Virus record (IMG/VR): IMGVR_UViG_3300029736_000004
DNA: 64,000 nucleotides
Direction: 5' to 3' (one strand)
Origin: a virus
Lineage: Duplodnaviria; Heunggongvirae; Uroviricota; Caudoviricetes
Shown here one piece after another: positions 45 through 63,806 of this stretch; position 1 is the stretch's first letter; every line of letters starts with the position of its first letter. The notes under the pieces are model-generated. The model was given only the letters and a program-made list of their open reading frames with translations. It did not search any database and was not told where the DNA came from. Position numbers and translations under genes: made by a program.

Positions 45-278
45 TTAGCGTGTGTTATCGCAGAAATGCCCACGGAACCCCTGGAGGCTTAACTGCCGGT
101 AGTGCCGTAGCCGTTCCATGAAATAGGCGCGCAGGTTTTCCGGTTGCTCACGGGCCACCTGCTCTGCAATCACAGGTATATTCAGTCGTTCTTTGTAAGC
201 AACGCCGCTGGCGGCAAGGTCTACGTTCACCTTGTCTCGCTCTTCCTGGCTTTTAGCTGCTATATTTCGATCTGACAC
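45..278 (-). CDS. hypothetical protein (77 aa)
   Basis: ORF with GTG start preceded by GGGAGG RBS; same orientation as neighbouring minus-strand genes; no recognisable motif. Confidence 0.4.
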
Positions 279-310
279 AAGAAACCTCCCGGAGTTAGTG
301 GATCAGGCAC

Positions 311-661
311 ATGCACAATAACGTTCTCAATGTTAGCCGTTCAATTCAGACAATCAGAGACTGCACCAGTGTGGTGGCATCAATCCCATTGCGAAACAGC
401 ATAGACGAACTGCAAATTCGTGTATTGAATCTGAATCAGGCTAATAAGCAATTGCGCTTTATTTTGACGCTGAAAAGTGAAACAGAGGGGATAAAGCACA
501 GCGTAAAAGTATTTTCTGAGGCCATTCTGCTTAATGGGAAGCTCCGGCATCTGGTAAGGCCAGAACGTCAATATCCTGACGTCCTGGCGCGTGAAAAAGA
601 CCTTCTTTCCGAAGTTCAGAATAGGGTGATCGATTTCGTTAAATGCCACCCACTACAATGA
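311..661 (+). CDS. hypothetical protein (116 aa), strand assignment uncertain
   Basis: Protein-like balanced composition but weak RBS; overlaps antisense ORF 380..649 which fits the minus-strand operon better positionally. Confidence 0.25.
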   Translation: MHNNVLNVSRSIQTIRDCTSVVASIPLRNSIDELQIRVLNLNQANKQLRFILTLKSETEGIKHSVKVFSEAILLNGKLRHLVRPERQYPDVLAREKDLLSEVQNRVIDFVKCHPLQ

Positions 662-717
662 TTTGTAGTAACCAGGGGTACTGCGGGTAGCCAAAACTAC
701 AAGCTCACCAGTCATCA

Positions 718-1533
718 TTAATACCGGCATTCATAGCATGAGTATCTCCACTGTTCATGGTCAAAGCACCAGAATGCTTCCCTGGGCAGATTGTGTTTGT
801 TCATTAGCGCCAATACTTGCGTAGGCGTATTCGCGGGAATTTCTGGTAGTAAAGCCTTCGCCATTTCATGAACCAACATGGCATCAATGACGCCTAGCGT
901 ATGGCCTGCCTTAATCTTTAATGCAGTTTCAAGATAGCTCCTTTCCAGAGTTGTGCTTACTCTTGGCTTCGGCACCTCTTGTGGATGAGTATCCAGACGG
1001 TTGCCAGATTCATAGGCTACCCGCAGCCAGTGCATGAATGTTTCAGTAGACACACAACCGCAGTCCAGGTCGATTTTTTCGCGTTGTTGCCCCAGCCATT
1101 GCTCAAAATTTAACTTATTGGATGCTTCAAGAGCCTCTTCGTATTGTTTGCGCGAAATTATTTCCGTGTATTCCTCGCGATAAAGGTTACTTATCGGAAG
1201 CCTGACCTCAAGGCAAAAATTGCGCCCACACGGGCTTTTCGCTGGATCAGAGCCAAAAGCAAAGAAACCATATGATGGTTCACAGCAGTCCTCTCTAACC
1301 ATGCGACAATCGAGCATATCATCAGGCCACCCTCCACGCTTTGGCAGCTCCTGCACCAACAAGTCAATCAGCTTTATACTCTCACCGTCTTTGCAGGTTG
1401 CTAACGCTATTTGGGCAAGCTCCAATACCTCATCTGCCGTGTATCCAGCGCCGTGTCCATACATTTCGATGCGTGCAATAATCTCTGATATGCGGAATTT
1501 AGTGATTTTAGTCATAGTTTTATTTCCTTGCAT
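718..1533 (-). CDS. hypothetical protein (271 aa)
   Basis: Long ORF, AAAGG RBS upstream of ATG; no recognisable catalytic motif. Confidence 0.5.
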   Translation of the reverse strand: MQGNKTMTKITKFRISEIIARIEMYGHGAGYTADEVLELAQIALATCKDGESIKLIDLLVQELPKRGGWPDDMLDCRMVREDCCEPSYGFFAFGSDPAKSPCGRNFCLEVRLPISNLYREEYTEIISRKQYEEALEASNKLNFEQWLGQQREKIDLDCGCVSTETFMHWLRVAYESGNRLDTHPQEVPKPRVSTTLERSYLETALKIKAGHTLGVIDAMLVHEMAKALLPEIPANTPTQVLALMNKHNLPREAFWCFDHEQWRYSCYECRY

Positions 1534-7044: not shown

Positions 7045-8040
7045 TCAGTTATTGAACGTGATCACTCCGCGCTCGATGGCGAAGTCGAAAAGCTGGTTGG
7101 CGGCTACGTAAAGGCGTATGCCATGTGCTTTTTCCCATGCCCGGACATCGTTTTCTGCGCTTCTGGCGCATTCATCGCAAAGAGGAACGGCCCAGCGATC
7201 GTGTTCGTTTAACGAGCGGGCGCGGTACATGAACGGGTGATTAACTTTGCCTCCGCATCCGATGCACGGACGAGAAATCACAAACCGGAGATAAGCCGGG
7301 CTTTTACCGAGAACCGCTTTTGGTCGGCGCATATACAGCAGGCCGGAATCCTCATCTACAGACAGGTTGACGATCTGCTCTGCGGTTATGTCCACCAGCT
7401 CACGGGTGCTGTGCTCCCAGGTGATATCCGATTCTTTCAGTGTGCCGGTAGGGATTTCCTGTTTTGGCTGACAAAATGCAATGCGACCGGCTTCATCTGG
7501 CAGCTCGTCTTTCAGATTCCGGCGAATGGCCCAAAAAGTGAGTTCAACCATGCTCAGATCGCGTTCTGGCGGTAGTTTTAACTCGCTCGCAGCCCAGTTC
7601 ATAACCCAGTTGGCACGATTCAGGGATAACTGGTCATCCAGCTTGCCGTACCCCTTCATCATGTATTCCGCATCATGCTTCCAGCACAGGCGAACGGCAG
7701 AGCCGTTATAGAAATGAGTGGTTAGCTGGTGGCTGCAATCGCGCTTATCGTGCGCCTGGCAATCGTGGATATTGGAACTTACCCAATGAACAAGCGAATC
7801 TTCACCGCCTAATGCGTTAAATACGCGCTCGCTTTGAAAAAATGCTTTCAGAGACTGGTTGGCAACCAGCGAATAGTTCAGATCCACTACGCCATCTGGC
7901 GTGTTTTCAGCCTGTTCGCGCGGAAGTGGAGAGATAATGAAACGGCGACCTGCGCCAATGTAGTTGCTGGTGGGCTTGTCTACCGGAAAGACAGCCACAC
8001 CAGCTCCGTTTACGAAATGAGGTGTGATTATTGCACTCAT
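7045..8040 (-). CDS. prophage protein with C-terminal Cys-rich HNH-like motif (YdfU/DUF968-like)
   Basis: C-terminal CIGCGG ... HPFMYRARSLNEHDRWAVPLCDEC pattern. Confidence 0.45.
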   Translation of the reverse strand: MSAIITPHFVNGAGVAVFPVDKPTSNYIGAGRRFIISPLPREQAENTPDGVVDLNYSLVANQSLKAFFQSERVFNALGGEDSLVHWVSSNIHDCQAHDKRDCSHQLTTHFYNGSAVRLCWKHDAEYMMKGYGKLDDQLSLNRANWVMNWAASELKLPPERDLSMVELTFWAIRRNLKDELPDEAGRIAFCQPKQEIPTGTLKESDITWEHSTRELVDITAEQIVNLSVDEDSGLLYMRRPKAVLGKSPAYLRFVISRPCIGCGGKVNHPFMYRARSLNEHDRWAVPLCDECARSAENDVRAWEKAHGIRLYVAANQLFDFAIERGVITFNN

Positions 8041-8082
8041 AATGTATACCGACTCTGTTTTGTTCCGAGCGGTAAAATAATA

Positions 8083-8113
8083 TGTTAGAAAATTAAAATC
8101 AACATTCTAACAC
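8083..8113. promoter_or_regulatory. operator-like inverted motif (site A)
   Basis: TGTTAGAAAATT-9 bp-ATTCTAACAC in the intergenic region upstream of the 7045..8040 gene. Confidence 0.5.
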
Positions 8114-8144
8114 GGTTTTGAGTGCATAAACGATGTGTTCAGGA

Positions 8145-8831
8145 TTACGGCTGGCCTCCCTTCACCTGCTTTAGCGTCAGATTTCCGCAAAAAACCGCGC
8201 CAGTGTCTATGTAGTGCTGGTTCCAGAAAGATTTCGGGCTGTTTACTGGCGTATGCCCGAAAATAAAGCTATCTGCACCAGTGATCATTCCACCAACACC
8301 ATCAACCGCGTCATAAAATCGCTCACGCCGCCAGGTAACATTGAGATCGCTAACAGGTTTACCAAACTGGTATTCGTTATCAGGATAGTCGGCATGGGCT
8401 ATAACGATAGTTTCATGCCCGGTGTTCAACTCAATGATATAGGGTAAACGTCTTACCAGCTCCACCAGCGCCCTGGCTAATATTTCCCGATCAGCGTCCA
8501 GCATGAAGAACCATTGGCCGCCATTCATTAGCCAGTTATTCACGTTGCCTGCGGGGCTTAACGCATCGATCATTAATCGCTCGTGGTTTCCCATAACCGA
8601 CCGAAACCAGGGCATCTGCAATAGCTCCAGGCATTCAACATTTTCGGTGCCGCGATCGATAAGGTCGCCAACCGATATCAGTAAATCCTGTGTCGGGTCA
8701 AAGTCCACACGATGAAGTTCAGACATCAATCTGGTGTAGCAACCATGCAGATCACCAACAACCCATATGTTTCTGTAGCCTGAACCATCAATACTGCTAT
8801 ATAAATTCACTTCATGCAGCGCCTGGGTCAT
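8145..8831 (-). CDS. Ser/Thr protein phosphatase (lambda phosphatase family)
   Basis: GDLHGC, GDLIDRG, GNHE metallophosphatase motifs and overall similarity to lambda orf221 phosphatase; start at MTQALHE overlapping upstream stop. Confidence 0.85.
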
Positions 8832-9139
8832 GCGGCAACCTTCTCCCGCAGCCAGATACAAACCGGGCCATCTTCAGTGTCATGAATAGAGCCAACAAAC
8901 CATCCTTCGCCCTCTGGTCGCTCTGGTTCCCAGGCGGCAATATCGGGACCATCTGCGTCCAGATTAAAATGATCTTCATCCATACTGCGAATAGTCCACT
9001 GAAGATTATTTTCCTTCATCCAGGCGTCAAATTCCTCAGTGGATATATATTCACGACCTGCGCAAAACTTTTCATACTCCGGATGTGTCCAGCAGCCATA
9101 TTCATCACGTTCTACCGGCATTTCTTTAATGATGCTCAC
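8828..9139 (-). CDS. hypothetical protein (103 aa)
   Basis: ORF, translationally coupled in the operon. Confidence 0.45.
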
Positions 9140-11146: not shown

Positions 11147-11817
11147 TGGTTGCCTCCTTTGCGAAGCTGGGCAGCGAACCTATCAGCTGCATCCGCGCAA
11201 GCAGAAGCAACGGAATCAAAAAATGGATCATCTCCTGTATCGCGCATCGTCAAAGCGAATGCCTCCACCCCTTGTGCCTGTATTTCTACAAGGGATGCCT
11301 TAGATGTAGTGCTTTTCGCCTCGCCTAATTCGTTATGAGCGATGTTCGCTATACATGCGATGTCTATATCTGGATGATTAATTGGGCAATGGCTAAGAAT
11401 TGCCTCAAGTGCTGCTTTTTTGCTTTGGCATTCCGCCACCAGCGCCCCGCAATTGCTTTCCAGCTCTGCAATACACTTTTTAGCGGCCTCCAGCTCAACA
11501 CGCAGATTCTCAAGCGTTAGAGCCTTCTCCACGTTCTCGTCCAGCAGTTCAATCACATCAGGATCGCTACCATCAACTACTGATATGCGCGAATTTTTGT
11601 AATGCTCGTCAGCATAAGTTCGTCCAGTTTTGAAGCATCCGTCATCCTCCATGCCGGAACAGGCATAAACAACATGTGATCCAGATATGCGCTGCATTGA
11701 CATTTCCTCGCCACAAACAGGGCATTTAGGCGCTGGTTTCGGTGAATAACGTTCACGTAACGGATAGTAAAGCTCGATCTCCGCCAGTTGCTCTGGCGTT
11801 AAACCTTCAGACTTCAT
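11143..11817 (-). CDS. Ea22-like protein with N-terminal Cys cluster
   Basis: CPVCGEE...ACSG...C N-terminal motif, coiled-coil, C-terminal [10 protein letters not shown] tail. Confidence 0.5.
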   Translation of the reverse strand: MKSEGLTPEQLAEIELYYPLRERYSPKPAPKCPVCGEEMSMQRISGSHVVYACSGMEDDGCFKTGRTYADEHYKNSRISVVDGSDPDVIELLDENVEKALTLENLRVELEAAKKCIAELESNCGALVAECQSKKAALEAILSHCPINHPDIDIACIANIAHNELGEAKSTTSKASLVEIQAQGVEAFALTMRDTGDDPFFDSVASACADAADRFAAQLRKGGNQ

Positions 11818-12124
11818 GTACTCTCCTTTCGAAATAAACGTACTGATTAATCATTCCCAGGGGCATTTCGAGTTTTTCTGCGATCTCACGGCGGGGAACA
11901 CCACACTGATGAAGCTGCCGCGCCAGTTCTATATCGCTCTGCCGGTATTTGGCTGACTGGTGAAAGTCTCCTTTCAGAATCATGCTGATCCGCAGTTGCC
12001 GCGCTTTAGTCCTGACAGCACCACCGGTACGCCCGATCAGTCTCCCAATACCCTCGACTGTCATAGTCCCGGCGCACTGGCGGAGCATCATGATTTCTGC
12101 CCTTCCCCATCCCCGCCAGCTCAC
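11807..12124 (-). CDS. putative HTH DNA-binding protein
   Basis: C-terminal CGVPRREIAEKLEMPLGMINQYV helix-turn-helix-like segment. Confidence 0.35.
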   Translation of the reverse strand: MSWRGWGRAEIMMLRQCAGTMTVEGIGRLIGRTGGAVRTKARQLRISMILKGDFHQSAKYRQSDIELARQLHQCGVPRREIAEKLEMPLGMINQYVYFERRVHEV

Positions 12125-12732
12125 GCAGAACTCCTTCTAACCAAAAGAACGCCATCTTCAGAAACAATGTTGCAGGACTTCAGGTAATTCATTGCTACTT
12201 TCGGTAATGGATTCTTTGGATCGGCGTTTGCCAGGGATTTCGATAACCTCATGATAAATTTGATCATTACCTTCTGACGGAGCTTGTGCTCATGAGATGC
12301 AGACAGGTAATAGGAAATGGTATGGGCTAAACGCTCACGAAGCTGTTCTGTGCCGTGATATACAGCAGCGATATCACGCAGTGCATTGACCAGTTCCCGG
12401 TAAATATGCGGAGCAACCTGGCATTCAATGTTGGTTGGTGACTCATAAATTACATTCAGCCCCAGCTTTTGAGCCAGCTCGTGCTCTGCACGAGCGCCAA
12501 CTGATTCCTCCCACCCCTTGAGCAAATAGACCGCATTAGCCGAACGCACCATTGCAAGGCAAATATCCATGTATTCGCTCTCGCAGAGGCCAGCAGGTAA
12601 CAGCGCCGGATTCAGAACAATATGCCCTACCTCCATCAGCTCTTTTGCTTTCGAAAAAAACGCTGTGCGGTTGTAGTCGGGATAACCAGTCATCGGCCCT
12701 GCGATGTAAATTTTCATAATGCGTTTTGACAT
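12121..12732 (-). CDS. DUF4406 / nucleoside 2-deoxyribosyltransferase-like protein with C-terminal extension
   Basis: MKIYIAGPMTG...LLKGWEESVGA pattern; start uncertain (ORF extends to 12759). Confidence 0.5.
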   Translation of the reverse strand: MSKRIMKIYIAGPMTGYPDYNRTAFFSKAKELMEVGHIVLNPALLPAGLCESEYMDICLAMVRSANAVYLLKGWEESVGARAEHELAQKLGLNVIYESPTNIECQVAPHIYRELVNALRDIAAVYHGTEQLRERLAHTISYYLSASHEHKLRQKVMIKFIMRLSKSLANADPKNPLPKVAMNYLKSCNIVSEDGVLLVRRSSA

Positions 12733-12927
12733 CAAAGTTTCCCCAGGAACGTTACGCAAAAGTTGATGAGAGCAAAGAGTTCAATGCCCAGCTCAAACAA
12801 CGCCAGGACAGTGAAAAACAGGGCATATAGCAACCCAATTTCTGTACCGGATTGCTGGTGGATTGCACTTATTGCGACAAGCATCATGACCTCCTGATAT
12901 AGCGTCTGAAAAAAGTATCTTCATTTT

Positions 12928-12959
12928 GTGTTAGAAAATCAATTTTGATTTTCTAACAC
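12928..12959. promoter_or_regulatory. operator-like near-perfect palindrome (site B) in a divergent promoter region
   Basis: GTGTTAGAAAATCAA-TT-TTGATTTTCTAACAC between the minus-strand operon and the ref-like gene. Confidence 0.55.
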
Positions 12960-12961
12960 GT

Positions 12962-13579
12962 TTGATCAACCATAGCGGCGATGTAGACAAACCGGGTATT
13001 TCTATGAAGCAAAGCTATTGGGAGAAACAGACACAAAAAGCCCTGCAAAAACTGGCTGATCCGAAATGGCGGGAGGAACAAAGGGCAAAGCGTCTTCAGC
13101 AAGCTCAACGCCTGCAGCAGCGTGCGCGAGAAAAAGCCGCATCGCCTGAATATCGGCAAAAGAAAATTGAAAAAGCGAAGCAATATGAACAGCGAAGAAA
13201 AGAGAAGGCCGCTTCTGCTCCTGTCAAAAAAACTCGCGCGTCACGCGGCCTGAAAGGCAGAACACTCACAGCAGATGAGCGCCGGATACAAACTGCCATC
13301 GGTGCTCTCCCCTGCATTGCCTGCCATATGCACGGACAGCATAGCCCTGTGGTATCCCTGCACCACATCTTCGGAAGAACAGCAGAGAACGCGCATAAAT
13401 ACGTCCTCCCTTTGTGTAAATGGCACCATCAACACGCAGCGCCAGCAGAGATCCGCGAGCAATACCCCTGGTTGGTTCCTGTTCATGCTGATGGAAAAAT
13501 AGGCGGCAAAGCAGATTTCAGGCGGCACAATGCTGATGAAATGACGTTGTATCAGATGGTGACTGAATTAATAAATTAA
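12962..13579 (+). CDS. ref: Ref-like HNH endonuclease (recombination enhancement function family)
   Basis: Basic Lys/Arg-rich N-terminal half plus C-terminal His/Cys HNH-like core (CIACHMHG, SLHHIFGR, LPLCKWHH); TTG or internal ATG start. Confidence 0.5.
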   Translation: MINHSGDVDKPGISMKQSYWEKQTQKALQKLADPKWREEQRAKRLQQAQRLQQRAREKAASPEYRQKKIEKAKQYEQRRKEKAASAPVKKTRASRGLKGRTLTADERRIQTAIGALPCIACHMHGQHSPVVSLHHIFGRTAENAHKYVLPLCKWHHQHAAPAEIREQYPWLVPVHADGKIGGKADFRRHNADEMTLYQMVTELIN

Positions 13580-13590
13580 TTTTCTAACAT
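13578..13590. promoter_or_regulatory. operator-like half-site (site C)
   Basis: ATTTTCTAACA overlapping the ref stop, upstream of the immI-like region. Confidence 0.35.
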
Positions 13591-13909
13591 TTTAAGTTGA
13601 ATTGTGAGATCCGCCGTTGTACATTCACAACCGATTGGTACACCGGTCAACTTTTTGAGACAAACCGTTTGGTTTTTCGTATGATTGCCGCCGCCATACC
13701 AATGGCGGTGCAATATAGGTGGCTGAAAAGCCCCCGTTGACTCACGGTGTTCCAACCTTTATTGCGCCGCCACCAGACCGTGGAACAGTCGATGGCGGCT
13801 CCGAAAGCAAGGAGTCACTACACTATGAACAGCTACTGTCTTTTCCCATCACTCGTTATCCGCCACTCACGCGATAATCTGCATTCTTTACTCGCGCTGG
13901 GGGTGTCAA

Positions 13910-14079: not shown

Positions 14080-14184
14080 AAAACACACAGTTGCGCCCTG
14101 GCATTATCGTGGGGTATATTTCTACGGCACCTTAGAAAAACGGGTGCCGGGATTGGAACCCCGGATAATGTCAAAGGCGACACA

Positions 14185-14206
14185 GACGCCGAAAGCGTCT
14201 TTTTTT
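14185..14206 (+). terminator. intrinsic terminator-like hairpin
   Basis: GACGC-CGAAA-GCGTC followed by TTTTTTT. Confidence 0.45.
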
Positions 14207-14224: not shown

Positions 14225-14330
14225 GCCATACGTAGCGTTTAGCTCAGAGATCAATGGTAGTGCTGGCTGGGCTGCCGAAAGGCAGGCCGGTTCCCTTTGA
14301 CGCCGGTAGTTCCAACCCAGTCAGTGCTAC
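14225..14330 (+). ncRNA. c4-like antisense RNA (immI-type), approximate bounds
   Basis: Contains GGTTCC, CCTTTGAC and GTTCCAA complementary to TTGGAACC and GTCAAAGG found upstream (14151-14177) and over the icd RBS (14341-14383); local hairpins. Confidence 0.4.
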
Positions 14331-14391
14331 CGCCATTGAGATTGGAACCTCACGCGGTAGCTCCTTAACTTAGTCAAAGGAGGCTGCCAAT

Positions 14392-14607
14392 ATGGCTACT
14401 ATCCCCACCCCAACTCATTCTGAATTTATCTGGCGTTTCTATTCCTGCCAAAAACACCTCTATATCTGCGTCATGGCTGCTACCGAAGCAGAAGCGCGCT
14501 CATACCTTCCCGAAGAACCCTGCATTTTTGCTGCTCGCTTCACTCTTGATGCGATGGAGATCCTCAATTACTGGAATCTGCCGATGAACTGCGTGGAGGT
14601 GCACTGA
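14392..14607 (+). CDS. icd: Icd-like host cell division inhibitor
   Basis: 71 aa with EFIWRF motif typical of P1 Icd-like proteins; AGGAGG RBS; stop overlaps ant start. Confidence 0.6.
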   Translation: MATIPTPTHSEFIWRFYSCQKHLYICVMAATEAEARSYLPEEPCIFAARFTLDAMEILNYWNLPMNCVEVH

Positions 14608-15548
14608 TGAATCTGTCCATCTCTCAAAAAGCGACAATGACCAGTATTGAAATCGCGGAACTGGTAGGTAAGCGTCATGATAATGTGAAGCGTACCATTG
14701 AAGTATTAACTAAAGGTGGTGTCATTCAATTTCCTCAAATTGAGGAAATTGAAAATAAACAATCAGTTGGCCCTCGTCGATTTTCCAAGGCTTACATCTT
14801 TGAAGGCGAACAAGGCAAGCGTGACAGTATCATTGTCGTTGCGCAGCTCTCTCCGGAATTCACCGCCCGGCTGGTGGACCGCTGGCGCGAACTGGAGAAT
14901 GCCAGGGGACCGTTAAAATCAAAAGCCGAAATCCTGGCTGAAATGGCGCAAATGCATCTTGAGCATGAACGCCGGATCAACGCTGTTAATGCCCAGGTAG
15001 CCGAAGTATCGGCACAAGTGTCCAAAGTCGCTGAAACCGTCGAGCAGATCAAGAAAGGCAACATACCAGAAGGTTACATTGGCTATCGCCAGTTAGCGGC
15101 GAAATGCGGCCTGACTGAAGCCAAATGCCGCAACCTGGTCAACGCTTACCGGATCCCCACAGATACGCATGAGTTTTTGACTCCCGACGGTTTGCTTGCG
15201 CGACGCTCAATTGTGGCCCTGGCCCCCTTCCGGAAAGCCTTTAAGCAGGTGATGTCGGAGGCAGAACCACGTAACAAACGCTGGTATCATCCCAGGATGG
15301 GGCTATTTCAGGCCATTCACCATCCTGTGCCTGAAAGTCCAAAGGCAAACCTGTCGTTGCATACCGCCAGAGAGAAGATTAAAACAGGGTATGCAACCGT
15401 ATGCCGTCGAGCATCCTGGCCTGAAAGTGTCTGGGTATGGCCCGAAAGAGGCTCACGGAAAAACTGGCGCACCATTCGCGACGGCAAGATCTGTGCGATT
15501 GATTTACAGCCAGAAGATGTAGCAGCGACCGACTGGATTGTTAGTTAA
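14607..15548 (+). CDS. ant: antirepressor (Rha/Ant family)
   Basis: N-terminal SIEIAELVGKRHDNVKR Rha-type motif; translationally coupled to icd (TGATG overlap). Confidence 0.65.
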   Translation: MNLSISQKATMTSIEIAELVGKRHDNVKRTIEVLTKGGVIQFPQIEEIENKQSVGPRRFSKAYIFEGEQGKRDSIIVVAQLSPEFTARLVDRWRELENARGPLKSKAEILAEMAQMHLEHERRINAVNAQVAEVSAQVSKVAETVEQIKKGNIPEGYIGYRQLAAKCGLTEAKCRNLVNAYRIPTDTHEFLTPDGLLARRSIVALAPFRKAFKQVMSEAEPRNKRWYHPRMGLFQAIHHPVPESPKANLSLHTAREKIKTGYATVCRRASWPESVWVWPERGSRKNWRTIRDGKICAIDLQPEDVAATDWIVS

Positions 15549-16955: not shown

Positions 16956-17170
16956 GTAAAAAAACTGAAGTTTTATGTTACAAAAGCAAACATGTACGCC
17001 AAAATGACCTAGGCCAAATTCAGCGCGAATAAAAAATTCAAAAAAATTGTTGACACTATTCTGGAAATCACAATCTGGACAAAATCCATTACGCAAACGG
17101 CTCCCGTTGAAGGTTCTTTTGACGACTAACTTTCAGCCGATGCGCGGTAGGGAGTCATAACGCCAAAGCA

Positions 17171-17194
17171 GGCCGCCATGTGCGGCCTTTTTTT
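17171..17194 (+). terminator. intrinsic terminator in the leader of the 17221 gene
   Basis: GGCCGC-CATGT-GCGGCC followed by TTTTTTT, 27 nt upstream of the start codon. Confidence 0.5.
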
Positions 17195-17220
17195 GTGCCT
17201 GCTATCGTGGAGTAAAAGCC

Positions 17221-20402: not shown

Positions 20403-20603
20403 GTGTTTGCAAGGACATGAATAGTACACTATTATGATGGTGAAGGAATGGTACATGTTGAACCAAACCTTCGAGGATGCAGCAGACTGAAGAAATTCAG
20501 ACATCCCGCAACCAGCTATCATAACAGGTCAAACCAGTTGTGATACTTGGTCAAGGCAAAGTCCGGTAATGGCGTTCTGAATACCAGAAAATAATTTCTG
20601 GCG

Positions 20604-20634
20604 AAGCCCACCTTAAGGTGGGCTTTGTTATTTT
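20604..20634. terminator. terminator-like hairpin
   Basis: AAGCCCACC-TTAA-GGTGGGCTT followed by T-rich tract. Confidence 0.4.
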
Positions 20635-21318: not shown

Positions 21319-22113
21319 ATGGGCCGTTTTGATGAATGGCTTGCTGATGATGCAAGCCTGATGAGAAAGGGAACAGAACATGACAGCACGCAGAGAGAAG
21401 AGACAACGACGGTTGAAGCGAATGAAGGAAGCACAACGGAAAATGGGAAGGTCAGTACAGGGCCATTCAGTATTCTGGAAGAACGCGCTGCCACCGAAGC
21501 AGATAGCCGCCATGATAATTGGTCTGATAATGCTGGTGACTCTGTTACGGAAGTGATTGAACCTGACATCGCTCCCCTACCGGCATCGCTCGCTAACAGA
21601 GAACCAAACCAGCAGCTTAAAACCCGATATAACGGACACAAAGCGTTCAACGACCAGATCCGCGCCGATTGGATGCTCATTATTGAATCAAGCCCTGACG
21701 CATTCGAGGCGCTTTTATATCGCCCGGCTGATGGCACCTATGGCGTCGTAAACGATGAAACAGGTGAAGAGTCATTCACGCAACTGGACAACAACCAGCG
21801 TGAGCTTACCTATCTGGAACCGGAAATCGTATACGTCCTGGACAACCCGGACGGAAGGGATTCGTTTCATGCCATTGATGCCGATGGAGAACAGGATGGT
21901 CTTGCTGATGAAGTGCTAATCCTGCGTATTGCTGCAAACAACGTACCTGTTGGTTCAATCCTGGAATGGAACGAAGAAATGGCGAATGGCCTCGCCCGCC
22001 GCTGGTGGTACGTGCACCGAATCTTCAGCTACGGAACACAACACGTCGGCTCCCTTTATTACTGCATCCCGGCCAGGAACTTTGATACCACTCAAAACGG
22101 AGTGATCGAATGA
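21319..22113 (+). CDS. acidic hypothetical protein
   Basis: ATG with GAGGA RBS; first of four coupled genes ending in a gpV-like spike. Confidence 0.45.
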   Translation: MGRFDEWLADDASLMRKGTEHDSTQREETTTVEANEGSTTENGKVSTGPFSILEERAATEADSRHDNWSDNAGDSVTEVIEPDIAPLPASLANREPNQQLKTRYNGHKAFNDQIRADWMLIIESSPDAFEALLYRPADGTYGVVNDETGEESFTQLDNNQRELTYLEPEIVYVLDNPDGRDSFHAIDADGEQDGLADEVLILRIAANNVPVGSILEWNEEMANGLARRWWYVHRIFSYGTQHVGSLYYCIPARNFDTTQNGVIE

Positions 22114-22880: not shown

Positions 22881-23861
22881 ATGTCCCAGGAGCTACAGCA
22901 ATACTTTCTACAGTCCGTTACCATCAACGGAAACAAAGTACCCAGGGAGTGGATATTCACTGCCGTATATGTGGAAAAGGCAAACCTGCGTGCACCATTG
23001 CTGAAACTGGAAATTCACGACATTACCGGCACCATAATTGATGACTGGAAAACAAAATACGGCGCAGCACTGGTTGCAGAGATGGGAGATCCACAAGGCA
23101 ATTCAGGCACGTTTAAAACAACTTTTTTCGTAACATCTGCGGTGCTGGCTGGTGATGTCATCACGGTCATTGCAGTCAGTGAAGACGTTCGGATATTTAA
23201 GATCCCCGCTATACGGGCTAACCTGCATACAAATAAAACGCCTGATACCATTTTCAAGACGTATACCGGTACACTGAAAATCGCCTCCAGCGCATTGAAA
23301 CGAAGCTGTACGTACCATCTTTCCGCCGGGGAAAAACCCTCCAAAATGCTATCTGAAATGGCCCGCGACAAAGGCGCTTTATGCTGGGCCTGCCGTGGTC
23401 AGTTTAACTTTTATACATTAGCTGACCTTATGAAAGCCAAACCATCATTCACCTATGAAGGGAACAACCCCAGGGCGGAATACACGATTTCAAAAATGAG
23501 GCTTATACAGCAAGAGTATGCCGTTACGGCAAATACTCAGTATCGATTTACCGGCTATTCAATGACTGAAGGCTATGTCGAATATGGCGATAGCTCACTT
23601 CCAATACGCTATATATCCGATCCGGATATGGAAACTCTGCGCAATATGCAATTGTCGCTCGTACCCAAAATGGATATTGAGGTCGCGGGTAATCCCGACA
23701 TCACGCCGGGAATGGTTATTGAGATCCTCGTGTATCGTTACGACCAGGAAAATAAGCTGGACGAATCGTTGCCTCGTAAGCTGTTGGTGAAAAACGTAGC
23801 CCATTTTGAGGACCGGATCGGATATACAACACGAATGATATTAGGAGTACCCAACCAGTGA
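22881..23861 (+). CDS. hypothetical protein (baseplate-associated by context)
   Basis: Coupled ORF upstream of the spike gene. Confidence 0.4.
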   Translation: MSQELQQYFLQSVTINGNKVPREWIFTAVYVEKANLRAPLLKLEIHDITGTIIDDWKTKYGAALVAEMGDPQGNSGTFKTTFFVTSAVLAGDVITVIAVSEDVRIFKIPAIRANLHTNKTPDTIFKTYTGTLKIASSALKRSCTYHLSAGEKPSKMLSEMARDKGALCWACRGQFNFYTLADLMKAKPSFTYEGNNPRAEYTISKMRLIQQEYAVTANTQYRFTGYSMTEGYVEYGDSSLPIRYISDPDMETLRNMQLSLVPKMDIEVAGNPDITPGMVIEILVYRYDQENKLDESLPRKLLVKNVAHFEDRIGYTTRMILGVPNQ

Positions 23862-24543: not shown

Positions 24544-24587
24544 AAAACTGTGTTAGATAATTGAGTTTTATTTTCTAACACAGTTTT
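24544..24587. promoter_or_regulatory. operator-like palindrome (site D)
   Basis: 13-bp perfect inverted arms AAAACTGTGTTAG / CTAACACAGTTTT separated by 18 bp, directly upstream of rdgC. Confidence 0.55.
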
Positions 24588-28782: not shown

Positions 28783-28792
28783 GGCAACCTCA

Positions 28793-31609: not shown

Positions 31610-31775
31610 TTATACCCCTTGCATAGTGCCAGAGGACACACCTGTGCTGTTAAACAAGTATCCGGCATACACTGAACAGTTATTCAGCACTATCGATGAA
31701 TGCAACCAACGAAATGCACTGAATAACCAAAGGAACAGGGAAATTTGGGAAGGGAAGGGGGATCACGGCTCCTGA
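31476..31775 (+). CDS. Rz1-like o-spanin lipoprotein (overlapping Rz in +1 frame)
   Basis: LSGC lipobox after a short signal peptide; Pro-rich mature part; start uncertain (31443 or 31476). Confidence 0.45.
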   Translation: MPGLMMCVCLMTLSGCSGNGQKKSISVPMQITVEATSKPQGNLIDYTPCIVPEDTPVLLNKYPAYTEQLFSTIDECNQRNALNNQRNREIWEGKGDHGS

Positions 31776-32245
31776 AGCCAGATATCCTGGCTGTCAGCTT
31801 CTTCAAAACCGTGACAGACGTTAAAGTCACTCAAGCGATACTGGCGCTGACGGCCTCTATTTCGCTCATGCCAATGCATATATCCACCGGCAAATGCCAG
31901 CGGACAATCGCTATAGTCGATGTAGCCAATACCATTACCCAAACGCGCTTCGCGCGCCCCGGCTTTCCAGGACAGTAGAAAAGAGTCACGATCTGCCAGC
32001 ATGACTACAAAATCATCTGGATCGCCTATGCAGTGAAGAATGCCTGCCTTGCATAACTGTTTGAGTGCCTTAGACTGGCTCAGGATGTCTTCACCGTAAT
32101 ACTGAAAACAATCATCAACAATAGCGGGATAGCCAGCGGGTGGATTCAGGCTGGTTGGTATAGCTGACGCGATAGCCAGCATTAAACGATATTGTGTTTT
32201 CGATGGGTTCGCGTGACTCATGTTTCCTCTACTCACTGTCTCCAT
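31763..32245 (-). CDS. hypothetical protein (160 aa)
   Basis: Coupled downstream of the RHH-like gene. Confidence 0.4.
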   Translation of the reverse strand: METVSRGNMSHANPSKTQYRLMLAIASAIPTSLNPPAGYPAIVDDCFQYYGEDILSQSKALKQLCKAGILHCIGDPDDFVVMLADRDSFLLSWKAGAREARLGNGIGYIDYSDCPLAFAGGYMHWHERNRGRQRQYRLSDFNVCHGFEEADSQDIWLQEP

Positions 32246-32625
32246 GCATTTTTCAGCTCCGGAATATCAGCCATTTCCACTAACTTCCGAAGCCCCGCGC
32301 TGACCTTCCCATTACCAACCGCAGCAAGCCAATCCCTTACTGACTTCGGCATATAAAGAGTGGTCGTTACAGGATCTTCCACTCTTACAGGCGTGCCAAT
32401 TTGAGGCCACTTAACAGATGCCAAAACGTCAGAAGGCGGGGTAAGCGCGGGAACATTAAGAATAGCCTTTCCTGAATGGAGAATCACGATTCGTTCAGCC
32501 AGGGAAAGAATGTCTCTTTCAGTAAGGATTGATGACAGTTGAGCTTCTACAAGGCATCTGCTGCTTGTATTCAGAGAATGGCTTTTAGCACCATTTTTGT
32601 ATGAAACGAAGATCTTGTACGCCAT
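32233..32625 (-). CDS. protein with C-terminal ribbon-helix-helix-like segment (candidate regulator)
   Basis: C-terminal TTLYMPKSVRDWLAAVGNGKVSAGLRKLVE resembles Arc/CopG RHH; adjacent to operator site E. Confidence 0.35.
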   Translation of the reverse strand: MAYKIFVSYKNGAKSHSLNTSSRCLVEAQLSSILTERDILSLAERIVILHSGKAILNVPALTPPSDVLASVKWPQIGTPVRVEDPVTTTLYMPKSVRDWLAAVGNGKVSAGLRKLVEMADIPELKNAWRQ

Positions 32626-32642
32626 TTGTTCTAATGTTTTAT

Positions 32643-32704
32643 GTTAGAAAATTAAGATTAAAACATACTAACACAAGATTGTTAACGAAAATTATTTTTC
32701 TAAT
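32643..32704. promoter_or_regulatory. operator-like motifs (site E) in a divergent promoter region
   Basis: TGTTAGAAAATT-11 bp-ATACTAACAC plus TTTTCTAATG at 32695. Confidence 0.5.
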
Positions 32705-32784
32705 GCTATTGACTAAATAACAAAGTGAGTATTGTCACCTCGTCAAAAGAATCTTCACGCCGCGCCCGAATTTAGGGTTTAACC

Positions 32785-34482
32785 GTGAACAAGAACATTG
32801 AGCCAGCTCGTAAGCGCGAGCGCGAGATTATGAATCGGGCGGCAAGCGTCATGGCTATGACCGTCGATCCAACCACTGATGCTGCCGGTAACATGATTGC
32901 CGACAACGAAGTGATGATGGCTAACCTGGAAAAAGCTATCCAGAAAGAGCCTATGTTTGAAGGCGTTGAACCAGAAGCAGCTCGCCAGATCATTGGTAGC
33001 TGGGCCATGTCTATTCATGAATACAAACGCCAGTATGGGCATTATCCGGCAAGCGATGTATTAGCCAACGCCCATGTAGCACTTGAGCGCCTGATGATGG
33101 AGTCCGCTAAAGAGACTCATGAAGGCGCTGGCAAAGCCATGTTTGAATCAGTAGCCAAGGACATGCGCACCTCCGATGGTGTAATGAAGGTTGCACAATA
33201 TGCCGCACTGATCCTGCCTGCTTCTCTCGGCGCAGCCACCAGCGACGCATGTACGTTTATCCCTTGTGATCGTGATGAAACCAATATTTACGAGCTGACC
33301 AACGTTGCTGGTACAAAATTCGGTACATTCGAGCAGGGCGATGAACTGAACATGCAGTCTGCTGGAGTGTATTCGCAGATGAAACGCCTGTACATCCTGA
33401 CCGAAAAAGGAGATGGCAGCAAAACCACCTTCCAGTTTGATATCCAGAACTTCGAAGGCCAGGCCTGCCCACTGCGCCAGGGCTACAACAAACTGCTGAT
33501 TAACCGCAAACCGTCCAAAGTAGATGATGGTGACGGCAACCTGTATTTCAACGACAAAGACGTCAACGGCAACTCTTTCTCTGTGACGGCAAAGGTTCGA
33601 TACGATACCGGCGTTATCGATATCACCTTTAATGAAGCACCAGCAGAAGGCACAGAAATCGCTGTTCAGGTTGAAATCAACATTGAACGCAATCCGAACC
33701 TGATACCTGTCATTAACCAGTCCATGCGCAATTACGCCCTGCGCCCGTCGGAGTACGTGATCGCATCCGAACATACGGTTATGGCTGCATCTGACCTGAG
33801 CCGTGAACACGGACTCGAACTGGCAGCATTGCAATTCTCTGCAATGCGCAACTGGATTTCCCACGAAATCGATATGATGCGCCTGCGCACTCTGGTATTC
33901 CACACCGTTTACGGTCGTGAATTTGATGTGGCACTGCCAGAAGCGCAGAACTACGAGTCGTGGGTTGGTTTAATTCGCCATGTTGTGAACGCGCTGTCAC
34001 AGGAGATGGCTGACCGCACCCTGACTACCGGTATCCGTGGTGGCTTTGCTGGTGGCGATGCTGCTAACTTCCTGCGTTCCTTACCGCCGCAGCACTTCCA
34101 GTTGGCACCGGGCTATGTACAGTCGCCGTACATTCAATACATCGGCACCCTGTTTGGTTCCATTCGTATCTACGAAGTGCCGAAGCCTATCTGCAAACAA
34201 TTCCAGAAATATGGCTACGACTTCGGCCTGGACGACATCTATTTCTATGGTCGTGGCGAAGGCATTGGTAAAGCAGGCCTGGTCGCAGGTGATGCTGTGC
34301 CTGCTATTCCGTATGTCCACGAAACAAATCCAGCCCTGGTGAACCGCACCACTTTCTGGGGCAAAGCAATCAACGATGTGCATCCGCGCAACGGTGAGAA
34401 CTATTTCACTCGCCTTCGCCTGACACGTTCGAAAGAAGGTGCGATTGACATGTTGAGCGGGCAAATCAACGAAAAAAAGTAG
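32785..34482 (+). CDS. putative major head protein (by position upstream of the sheath)
   Basis: 565-aa ORF, GTG start; heads a block followed by Ig-like, sheath and tube genes; assignment positional only. Confidence 0.35.
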   Translation: MNKNIEPARKREREIMNRAASVMAMTVDPTTDAAGNMIADNEVMMANLEKAIQKEPMFEGVEPEAARQIIGSWAMSIHEYKRQYGHYPASDVLANAHVALERLMMESAKETHEGAGKAMFESVAKDMRTSDGVMKVAQYAALILPASLGAATSDACTFIPCDRDETNIYELTNVAGTKFGTFEQGDELNMQSAGVYSQMKRLYILTEKGDGSKTTFQFDIQNFEGQACPLRQGYNKLLINRKPSKVDDGDGNLYFNDKDVNGNSFSVTAKVRYDTGVIDITFNEAPAEGTEIAVQVEINIERNPNLIPVINQSMRNYALRPSEYVIASEHTVMAASDLSREHGLELAALQFSAMRNWISHEIDMMRLRTLVFHTVYGREFDVALPEAQNYESWVGLIRHVVNALSQEMADRTLTTGIRGGFAGGDAANFLRSLPPQHFQLAPGYVQSPYIQYIGTLFGSIRIYEVPKPICKQFQKYGYDFGLDDIYFYGRGEGIGKAGLVAGDAVPAIPYVHETNPALVNRTTFWGKAINDVHPRNGENYFTRLRLTRSKEGAIDMLSGQINEKK

Positions 34483-62232: not shown

Positions 62233-62248
62233 GCTAAAAGATAGCTTA

Positions 62249-62262
62249 ATTTTCTAACACAG
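62249..62262. promoter_or_regulatory. operator-like half-site (site F)
   Basis: ATTTTCTAACACAG, followed by a short palindrome ACAGTGT-N8-ACACTGT. Confidence 0.4.
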
Positions 62263-62348
62263 TGTGTTTTTATACACTGTTGATCCGACGGCGCGTGATC
62301 GAGTAGGATCGCGGTCACTGCTCCGGTAGCGACTGCCAAAAAAGCAAA

Positions 62349-62370
62349 AGCCGCTGAGAAGCGGCTTTTG
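62349..62370 (+). terminator. intrinsic terminator
   Basis: AGCCGCT-GAGA-AGCGGCT followed by TTTTG. Confidence 0.5.
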
Positions 62371-62430
62371 GGTGTATAAATCTCCGGACATAGATTTATA
62401 CGGTAGATAGATTTTTCACGGTACTATCTG

Positions 62431-63390
62431 GTGAGTATTTTAAATTCAGTTTCAGTAACTTTCAACACTTCTGAGTATAAAAACAACACTGAATACCACA
62501 AAAAAATCAAAGGTCATCAGTTGAGTTTTTTTGCTCGTCATAGCGGTTTTCTTTCCCCTTCACATAGCGCCATTATTGCCGAGTTCGCCAACCTGGCAGG
62601 AGCTACCGATGAATACATGATCCGTCGCTCATATGCTGATATGTCCGAGATTACAGGACGCAGTATTTCTACTGTGCGCCGGGCATTTACCGAAGCGACG
62701 AAGTGCGGAATGCTTGTTAAGCAGCATCAGGTAGCGAATAACAATGCTCAGGTGTGTAACGTGTACCGGTTTACAACACAATTTCTCCACTTCATTCATG
62801 TAGCAATGGAGATAGGGAGTAAGCAGGGCATCAAATTTGCCAACGCCACAAAACTGGTTAAGCAGTTGATTTCAAAGGTTCGTTATTTTTTTGAAACTGG
62901 GAACCCCCTGTTCAAATTGAACAAGTCCCCCCATGTTCAAAATGAACAGCCAATAGAAAATAAGAGTCACTCTATAGCCAAAAGAAGAGAAAGATCATGC
63001 GCGGTTCAGCCAAAGGCTTCACCAGCAGATAGTTCTCAAGCGGATAATGGCTTGCTGGATAAAAAAACAGTAATCAGGGAAGAACATACCAACCACTGCC
63101 TGGCGGCAGCAAAAGCGAGAGCTGCAAAGCGTCGTTCAGACGAGGGGTACGCAAAACGGCAGGCTCTGTATCGTACCGCTGAAAAACTGGCAAAAAAATT
63201 TGCATGGTTACGTAGTGCTACCACAGTGAATAAGCCCAAACGATCCAGCGCCCTGGATTTCTCTATGGATTATTCTGCTTCCCAGGGATGTGCAACCATC
63301 AATGAAGCATTTGACCTGATGAAACAGCGTGGCTATCGGTCTGAATTTGACCGGGAAGACTGGTCAATTCCGGAGGGCTTTCGGGGATGA
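62431..63390 (+). CDS. HTH-containing protein, possibly RepL-like lytic replication initiator
   Basis: EITGRSISTVRRAFTEATKCGML HTH; preceded by 10-bp inverted repeat GTATAAATCT/AGATTTATAC (62376-62403); start uncertain. Confidence 0.3.
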   Translation: MSILNSVSVTFNTSEYKNNTEYHKKIKGHQLSFFARHSGFLSPSHSAIIAEFANLAGATDEYMIRRSYADMSEITGRSISTVRRAFTEATKCGMLVKQHQVANNNAQVCNVYRFTTQFLHFIHVAMEIGSKQGIKFANATKLVKQLISKVRYFFETGNPLFKLNKSPHVQNEQPIENKSHSIAKRRERSCAVQPKASPADSSQADNGLLDKKTVIREEHTNHCLAAAKARAAKRRSDEGYAKRQALYRTAEKLAKKFAWLRSATTVNKPKRSSALDFSMDYSASQGCATINEAFDLMKQRGYRSEFDREDWSIPEGFRG

Positions 63391-63448
63391 TGTTGCGATT
63401 GACTGTACAATAACCGTGCGGCGGGAATTTCATCGCTCGAAAATGTAT

Positions 63449-63546
63449 GTTAGAAAATTAAATTGATGTTTCTAATCAAGAATGTATGATTTATATCGTC
63501 ACTAAAAAACAGCATCTGATAAAAATTCTGTTGATCTTTCTAATGT
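63449..63546. promoter_or_regulatory. operator-like motifs (site G) upstream of the second immI-like module
   Basis: TGTTAGAAAATT-9 bp-TTTCTAATCA and TTTCTAATG at 63538. Confidence 0.5.
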
Positions 63547-63679
63547 TCAGGCTTATATTCATGCCGTCGTAGCAAATTCTGCGACCGGGTTTAGCAGCCT
63601 GAATGTTAGTGCGGACAACCGCAGATATCCGATATTGCGGTATTTTTGTGTCCGTAAAACCGCGTTACGCCCAAATTAT

Positions 63680-63745
63680 GGTGGGGCGTGATGGGGAGGC
63701 TTCGGCCTGCTGGTTTCACTAACGCCAGTCTGCTAACCCCGTCAC
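63680..63745 (+). ncRNA. second c4-like antisense RNA (approximate bounds)
   Basis: CACTAAC and CTGCTAA complementary to GTTAGTG and TTAGCAG found at 63591-63611 and over the icd RBS at 63760-63798; GGC-TTCG-GCC tetraloop hairpin. Confidence 0.4.
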
Positions 63746-63806
63746 GTCCTGCCACCTGTTTAGCAGCGGGTAGCAGGTTGTTAAACCTGTTAGTGAGGCC
63801 GTAACT

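Follow-up and report, generated by a model that had tools for sequence, protein, structure and literature searches.

The 64,000-nucleotide (nt) stretch of viral DNA analysed here in its entirety (IMG/VR record IMGVR_UViG_3300029736_000004, hereafter "the window") carries at seven loci an asymmetric motif of about 16 bp, TTAATTTTCTAACAYA, which very probably constitutes the operator set of a D6-type C1 master repressor with a specificity of its own. The window is 98% identical to the E. coli plasmid NZ_LR890273.1 (hereafter LR890273), in which it corresponds to the segment from ~44.7 kb, across the record origin, to 17.7 kb. It is also 75-95% identical over most of its length to phage D6 (MF356679 / NC_050154), a relative of P1 whose lysogenic form is a plasmid. 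Judged by these identities, the window is a D6-like phage-plasmid of the P1 family, i.e. a plasmid prophage of E. coli. The regulon is the orthologous counterpart of the known P1 C1 regulon; what sets it apart is the sequence of the sites and the geometry of the bivalent ones.

The 11-mer ATTTTCTAACA is present in nine exact copies in the window, and in 11 copies if one mismatch is allowed, with 1.8 copies expected; none of 100 dinucleotide-preserving shuffles reached this count of 11. Alignment of the copies reveals a conserved unit that is longer than the 11-mer and asymmetric (TTAATTTTCTAACAYA, ~16 informative positions). A position matrix built from the window sites themselves and then scanned over the 64-kb window gives a bimodal score distribution, with 10 half-sites at 18.6-27.9 bits, one at 14.9 bits and the remainder at or below 9.7 bits. 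Under a generous open reading frame (ORF) model 91.8% of the window is coding and 8.2% intergenic. Nine of the 10 strong units are intergenic, and the remaining unit overlaps the stop codon of ref. The intergenic DNA contains 9 matches of at least 15 bits, against 0.07 expected from dinucleotide shuffles of that same DNA. Because these sites had served to build the matrix, all 8-mers of the intergenic segments were also counted without it, and TTTTCTAA, TTCTAACA and TTTCTAAC came out on top. TTCTAACA lies fully within coding sequence just twice (35656, 57339), approximately the chance expectation, so the density inside coding regions is not similar to that between genes.

The seven loci, designated A to G (Table 1), comprise three full inverted pairs (A, B and D), one pair with a degenerate arm (G) and three effectively single units (C, E and F). 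A sequence-only reading of the window had proposed a palindromic motif dispersed over at least seven intergenic regions. The dispersion is borne out by the matrix, the shuffles and the matrix-free count. The palindromic character holds for the inverted pairs at A, B and D, but the basic unit is an asymmetric 16-mer, and each "palindrome" consists of two good units in identical register, 21 bp core to core. The 15-bp arms which that reading had called near-perfect at 12928-12959, in operator B, are 100% complementary.

Complete relatives (LR890273, D6 and P1) were scanned with the same matrix as the window. The whole LR890273 replicon (~92 kb) contains ~19 units of at least 14.5 bits, among them five pairs in identical register, and the sites additional to those of the window include units at c1, lpa and pmgS. 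In D6, each homologue of loci A-G carries a site of this motif, as do c1, lpa and pmgS. The P1 genome, scanned with the D6-type matrix, has no match above 13 bits. That no cognate repressor is obvious in the window, as remarked earlier, agrees with the position of the c1 homologue, which maps outside it: between pacB and cre in LR890273 (37223..38260) and at 227..1264 in D6. A scan of a collection of genome contigs (596 Gb) with GTTAGAAAATN7ATTTTCTAAC returned 15 matches in unrelated taxa, consistent with chance. Literature searches for the motif string, for D6-like operators and for phage-plasmid C1 operators returned nothing relevant, the D6 genome paper (Gilcrease & Casjens 2018) not being covered by them, and neither the GenBank nor the RefSeq record of D6 has operators annotated.

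Between c1 and cre of LR890273 (38440-38500), a near-unit (GATTTCTAAC) directly precedes the rox (lox-like) site, and a second weak unit (TTTTCTAATAGG) is located 86 bp from the strong c1-proximal operator. A possibility is that these near-units of the rox region take part in looping or in multi-site autoregulation, as at P1 Op99.

The D6-type C1 (e.g. WP_029701835 or D6 gp1) is a protein of 345 residues. The allele of the window lineage, represented by close relatives, is 80% identical to D6 gp1 and goes with the same operator consensus. Gene 1 of D6 is annotated as "prophage repressor, similar to P1 C1", and a comparison of the D6-type and P1 C1 families with hhalign gives a probability of 97.4% (E 1e-11, 230 columns, 18% identity). 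The precomputed domain PF27008 is common to D6-type C1 and P1 C1 homologues, and NF041318 (phage_rep_C1) matches residues 9-244 of D6-type C1 with E 1.8e-5, far below its equivalog cut-off. Searches of a local copy of Pfam-A and of PDB sequences gave no match, and the PHROG of the protein is one of unknown function. Relative to P1 C1, the D6-type protein carries ~100 extra C-terminal residues, largely helical. By profile similarity, D6-type C1 is a genuine but remote homologue of P1 C1.

In P1, C1 binds 22 dispersed operators with the asymmetric 17-bp consensus ATTGCTCTAATAAATTT (PMC8546580). In the RefSeq record of P1, protein_bind features mark C1 operators at ref, the ref 3' end, c4, kilA-repL, 4 nt past repL, uhr-hrdC-dmt, pmgR/S, lpa and others. 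Like the C1 system of P1 and P7, which comprises immC and a C1-controlled regulon (Op2, Op51, Op53, Op55, Op68, Op72, Op86, Op94, Op99 and others), the system described here consists of many dispersed, asymmetric, intergenic sites of ~17 bp on a plasmid prophage, monovalent as well as bivalent, in overlap with sigma-70 promoters (predicted here). The targets shared with P1/P7 are ref, the ref 3' end, c4-icd-ant, repL, the region past repL, hrdC-dmt, lpa, pmgR/S and c1. More than 10 dispersed asymmetric sites and a P1-type target set are found when the window is taken together with LR890273 and D6, and a P1 C1 homologue near the cre/lox-pac region is found in these relatives. Counterparts of P1 Olpa, OpmgR and the c1/coi operators are located outside the window, as LR890273 and D6 sites. 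Locus A, ahead of an operon running from the pdcB-like to the pmgU-like gene, is roughly analogous to P1 OpmgT, and P1 has no operator at the position of locus E. The suggestion of a C1-like regulon with P1-like targets is thus sustained by the D6-like nature of the element, the C1 homology, the sites at c1 and lpa and the match to P1 operators.

The differences from P1 concern specificity and geometry. The common part of the consensus sequences is just TCTAA(n)A, and the P1/P7 operator consensus, which would denote the same immunity specificity, is absent from the window. That the motif differs from the P1 operator had been recognised from the window alone. Given the consensus mismatch and the lack of a matrix match in P1, the specificity is different, and the element does not belong to the P1/P7 immunity group. 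The pairs of the window consist of two units 21 bp apart with their TTAATTT ends central, whereas P1 Obanab is formed by two 17-mers which overlap by 6 bp with their AAATTT ends central, in the opposite relative orientation; bivalent operators of this P1 type (17-mers overlapping by 6 bp, tails central) do not occur in the window. Unlike P1, the window furthermore contains two immI-type modules (Rfam), each with a C4 RNA followed by icd and an antirepressor gene, and each preceded by a site.

Table 1. Operator sites and associated features. Positions are those of the window unless another record is named, all promoters are predicted, and each strong half-site listed with its strand for A-G scores at least 18.6 bits.
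Feature	Position	Units and score	Genes	Predicted promoter	Counterpart in relatives	P1 operator
Operator A	8081..8114	8081-96(-), 8099-8114(+); bivalent, TATGTTAGAAAATTAA / TCAACATTCTAACACG, cores 21 bp apart; 27.3 + 18.6 bits; arms 8083-90 / 8105-12, 8 nt	ppp-like gene (8145..8861 -); pdcB-like/DUF968 operon (7045..8040 - and leftward)	leftward, -35 TTGATT 8102..8097, -10 TATTTT 8079..8074	D6 80707-80740; LR890273 53967-54000	
Operator B	12927..12960	12927-42(-), 12945-60(+); bivalent; 26.2 + 24.5 bits; arms 12928-42 / 12945-59, 15 nt	ref (13004..13579 +); leftward operon	leftward TTGATT(12942..12937)-17-GATACT(12919..12914); rightward (Pref) TTGATT(12945-50)-17-AACCAT(12968-73), AATCAT in D6 type		Oref, between -35 and -10 of P2ref
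Leftward operon at B			small ORF ending 12888; DUF4406 12121..12759 -; helix-turn-helix (HTH)-like 11807..12124 -			
Operator C	13576..13591	13576-91(+); single unit TTAATTTTCTAACATT; 24.8 bits; partner position -14 bits, i.e. none	overlaps ref stop codon; ahead of immI module 1	TTGAAT(13597-602)-17-TACATT(13620-25)		Omat, overlaps ref 3' end; Oc4, abuts -35 of P2c4
immI module 1, downstream of C			isrK-like 14127-14205; C4 RNA 14250-14337; icd 14392..14607; ant 14607..15548			
Candidate weak operator H	16974..16989	(-); TTGCTTTTGTAACATA (core TTGTAAC); 14.9 bits	upstream of simB-like gene, in simB-like/mat divergent region		TTATTTTTATAACATA in D6 (72198-213, 33 nt upstream of orf79); TTGTTTTTGTAACATA in LR890273	
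Operator D	24549..24582	24549-64(-), 24567-82(+); bivalent within 20-nt-arm inverted repeat; 23.1 + 25.4 bits; arms 24542-61 / 24570-89, 20 nt, 95% complementary	directly upstream of rdgC(hrdC)-cytosine methylase-Dam operon (start ~24595)	-10 GATAAT (24556-61)	D6 64114-64147	Odmt (Op68), ahead of uhr-hrdC-dmt
Operator E	32640..32655	32640-55(-); one strong unit TTAATTTTCTAACATA; 27.3 bits	between orf52-like gene (32233..32625 -) and major capsid gene 23 (32785..34482 +)	leftward TTAACA(32685..32680)-17-TTTAAT(32662..32657)	D6 54204-19	
Operator F	62246..62261	62246-61(+); single unit TTAATTTTCTAACACA; 27.9 bits	170 bp upstream of repL (62431..63390 +)	weak matches	D6 22465-80, TTAAATTGCTAACATA	OrepL (Op53), ahead of kilA-repL
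Operator G	63446..63479	63446-61(-), strong left unit, 27.3 bits; 63464-79, degenerate in-register right unit (TGATGTTTCTAATCAA), -3.1 bits	56 bp past repL stop; upstream of immI module 2	TTGATG(63463-68)-16-TATGAT(63485-90), 9/12 consensus positions		in position Orlf (Op55), 4 nt past repL stop; in function Oc4
immI module 2, downstream of G			c4-a1b1 63553-63605; C4 RNA 63674-63759; icd2 from ~63808			
LR890273 site	27735	unit	upstream of pmgM			
LR890273 sites	28790; 30035-68	unit at 28790; in-register pair at 30035-68	upstream of pmgS; just downstream of pmgS			
LR890273 site	33815-48	in-register pair	upstream of lpa homologue			
LR890273 site	38275-90	one unit	15 nt upstream of c1 start codon			
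LR890273 site	39670	unit	just past cre			

Mapped against predicted -35 and -10 elements, the sites overlap or abut plausible sigma-70 promoters. The left unit of operator A fills the spacer of the predicted leftward promoter. In operator B the centre of the palindrome would serve both divergent predicted promoters as -35 hexamers, with one unit in each spacer. A gap of 5 nt separates operator C from the downstream -35 of the predicted immI module 1 promoter, whose hexamers are invariant in 6 relatives with a variable spacer. In operator D a predicted -10 is positioned inside the left unit, and in operator G the right unit covers the predicted -35.

At loci B, D, F and G the operator unit or pair forms a conserved block amid flanking spacers in which the window type and the D6 type are strongly different. 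The 34-bp block of operator B is a conserved island in 6 relatives with strongly diverged flanks. The left flank is diverged at operator D and at operator F, and ~50% diverged at operator G, where the block and the following -10 are both kept in D6. The right partner in operator G (core TTCTAAT) is degenerate, yet in register (cores 21 bp apart) and conserved in D6.

A block conserved in D6, located between operator F and the start of repL (62290-62430, + strand), includes a terminator-like hairpin, AAAAGCCGCTGAGAAGCGGCTTTT, at ~62350-62373. In P1, kilA and an antisense promoter occupy this place; the block may control repL as an attenuator or as a small RNA.

Operator E is flanked by degenerate core-like elements (TTCTAAT 32629-35, TACTAAC 32666-72). 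D6 retains the unit without these flanking partners; the arm at 32658-73, with a spacing of 23 bp, falls outside the common register and is likewise not retained in D6. The hexamers of the predicted leftward promoter are also kept in D6, and the unit would fall at approximately +1. The sequence-only reading had placed this site ahead of the head gene block. The predicted promoter that it overlaps points leftward into the orf52-like gene, which is likely the target rather than the capsid gene. Of the two longer regions proposed as sites, 32643-32704 and 63449-63546, each contains a strong unit, but their outlying elements (32692-32707 and 63531-63546) are weak, at or below 9 bits, and 63531-46 is not conserved in D6. 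The orf52-like gene and the orf53-like gene (31763..32245, - strand), both behind operator E, belong to PHROGs 7830 and 8101 of unknown function; they are restricted to the D6-type backbone, with identity bands like those of C1, absent from P1 and putatively controlled by C1.

Candidate H, whose score is the sole one between the strong set and the background, is uncertain as an operator. Between the simB-like gene and mat, a block at 17050-17196 (+ strand) is conserved in the window, D6 and LR890273 and terminates, directly ahead of the mat start codon, in a GC-rich hairpin with a T run. The block has a folding energy of -41 kcal/mol (z -1.8), has no match among Rfam families and may represent a small RNA or a leader/attenuator.

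In the mechanism proposed for these sites, an asymmetric site of ~16 bp (TTAATTTTCTAACAYA), present in ~20 copies per ~92-kb replicon either singly or as inverted pairs with 21-bp core spacing, would be occupied in the lysogen by C1, encoded beside cre/rox, which would block RNA polymerase at early and lytic promoters. Within the window, the repressed set would comprise repL, which serves lytic replication, ref with the accessory operon divergent from it, both C4-RNA/icd/antirepressor modules, the orf52-like gene and the pdcB-like and rdgC-methylase operons; beyond the window it would include c1 itself, the late-activator gene lpa and the region of pmgS. As in P1, the antirepressors would lift repression by inactivating C1. 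That C1 is the protein bound to the sites we infer from its homology to P1 C1, from the identity of the target set and from the autoregulatory placement of a site at c1. Binding of one monomer per unit (as with P1 C1), repression as the outcome of binding and the promoter assignments are likewise putative.

Several points weigh against this assignment. The link between C1 and the sites is drawn from sequence comparison and, because c1 is not in the window, rests on close relatives. The likeness to the P1 operator is confined to TCTAA(n)A, and a matrix comparison does not pick that register as the best one. Covariation with lineage does not single out C1, the orf52-like gene behaving in the same way. 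Some promoter predictions are weak (at F, and for Pref in the window allele), and the orientation of the pairs is opposite to that in P1 bivalent operators, so the mode of binding may differ.

It is improbable that the sites are operators of another regulator encoded by the element, for which the orf52-like protein, the HTH/sigma-r4-like protein 11807..12124 or a Rha/Ant-type protein would come into question. The role of C1 as binder is itself a deduction, which leaves some room for them. The orf52-like gene co-occurs with the D6-type backbone, and its distribution and identity bands match those of C1 (140 vs 153 plasmid records); covariation with lineage, to be expected of any backbone gene, is thereby weakened as an argument for C1 specifically. 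The protein 11807..12124 matches a PHROG named "transcriptional regulator, D5-like" and has weak matches to sigma-70 region 4 / HTH. However, the target genes are the P1 C1 set, including c1 itself and lpa, the homology of the repressor to P1 C1 is established, and the TCTAA core is common with the P1 C1 operator across four lineages. The orf52-like protein, which had been put forward as a ribbon-helix-helix-like candidate repressor, has no match to a DNA-binding family or any other Pfam entry and falls into a PHROG of unknown function; because its own promoter carries a site, the gene looks like a target.

A promoter element common to the sites (-35 TTAATT/TTGATT plus spacer), read by RNA polymerase or an activator of the phage (Lpa, for instance), is less probable still, although the unit opens with six bases similar to a -35 hexamer and the predicted -35 coincides with that hexamer in B (leftward) and G. 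In an alignment of the 10 copies, no conserved -10 recurs at a set distance past the unit, and relative to the predicted promoters the unit is found in the spacer, at the -35, upstream of the -35 or at +1, with no constant orientation towards the downstream gene. The promoter-element interpretation was rejected for its lack of a fixed -10 and the variable position of the unit. The P1 late (Lpa) promoter box is of a different sequence (AAGTGACT plus -10) and was rejected for that reason; moreover, the genes concerned are early or immunity genes.

Chance, a compositional artefact of AT-rich intergenic DNA, or RNA hairpins and terminators in place of operator palindromes can be dismissed almost entirely, for although the intergenic DNA is more AT-rich than the window (43.5% vs 47.6% GC) and some pairs could fold as hairpins, the matches far exceed those in shuffled intergenic DNA (9 vs 0.07), relatives preserve the sites as islands, three of the loci consist of a lone unit without a partner, and the pairs, which lack T-runs, stand ahead of promoters or in the gap between divergent genes.

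The placement of such sites extends to more distant plasmids. A Salmonella plasmid with a 66% identical C1 possesses the window-type motif upstream of c1. In an Enterobacter plasmid (C1 40% identity) the top intergenic word is ATTTTCTAACGAA, located upstream of c1, lpa and pmgS, and the putative operator sequence of this type reads ...TCTAACGAA. Pantoea and Citrobacter plasmids (C1 ~30% identity) have the top intergenic word aATTCTAAGG in the same kinds of place. Pantoea pEuc3 possesses P1-style overlapping pairs, TCTAAGAGTTTTCTTAGA (21525-21555 and 22925-22955 of the stretch L010), in contrast to the 21-bp spacing seen in the E. coli D6 lineage. TCTAA is common to all lineages including P1, the following base being T, C or G depending on the lineage. 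As an indication of operator kinship the shared core is suggestive only, because the comparison of the D6-type and P1 matrices does not favour the TCTAA register.

An AlphaFold2 model of a D6-type C1 (pLDDT, the predicted local distance difference test score, 80; 10-sequence alignment), compared with the PDB by Foldseek, matches four Tus-Ter structures with E 2e-7 to 5e-6, the next match having E 0.2. E. coli Tus is thereby the sole significant fold match in the PDB, at low TM-scores (0.31-0.41) and with a model from a shallow alignment. The P1 C1 model is poor (pLDDT 57) and ranks the same four Tus chains first, non-significantly. A sequence comparison of C1 and Tus detected no similarity, and a literature search returned no paper linking the two. 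As a monomer, Tus (structure 1ECR) clamps a DNA site that is long and asymmetric. Tus-Ter functions in fork arrest and C1 in transcriptional repression, and the predicted resemblance is at the level of the fold only. It is conceivable, if rather unlikely, that the PF27008 C1 family is built on the Tus fold, that each 16-17-bp operator is a "Ter-like" site clamped by one monomer, and that in the D6 lineage the C-terminal helical domain, together with the strictly 21-bp-spaced inverted pairs at divergent promoters, represents a new pairwise (cooperative or dimeric) binding mode. Such a fold, if true, would explain the non-palindromic sites of the C1 family, unlike those of most phage repressors, and would account for the long-known monomeric, asymmetric recognition by P1 C1. 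A corollary, that site-bound C1 also impedes replication forks in a polar way, is much less likely.

Among further features of the window, Chi sites (GCTGGTGG) are present 19 times on the + strand and 9 times on the - strand, against ~1 expected per strand, and 28-31 times in each 25-kb stretch of the distant relatives (L009-L011). Matches above the Rfam gathering score (+ strand) comprise the two C4 antisense RNAs, an isrK-like element just upstream of the first of them, c4-a1b1 in the second module only, and a sroH-like element (20441-20626).

D6-like phage-plasmids occur widely in E. coli, Salmonella and Shigella, and some carry resistance genes; in PLSDB, 150 to 450 records match parts of the element. 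The D6-type operators leave the concept established for P1 unchanged. Their map provides a testable view of how a master repressor may control two antirepressor modules, lytic replication, ref and methylases. With the operator consensus, immunity groups may become predictable from sequence, and promoter/operator parts orthogonal to those of P1 may be derived. Experiments would be most worthwhile on the possible Tus fold and on the pairs of fixed spacing.

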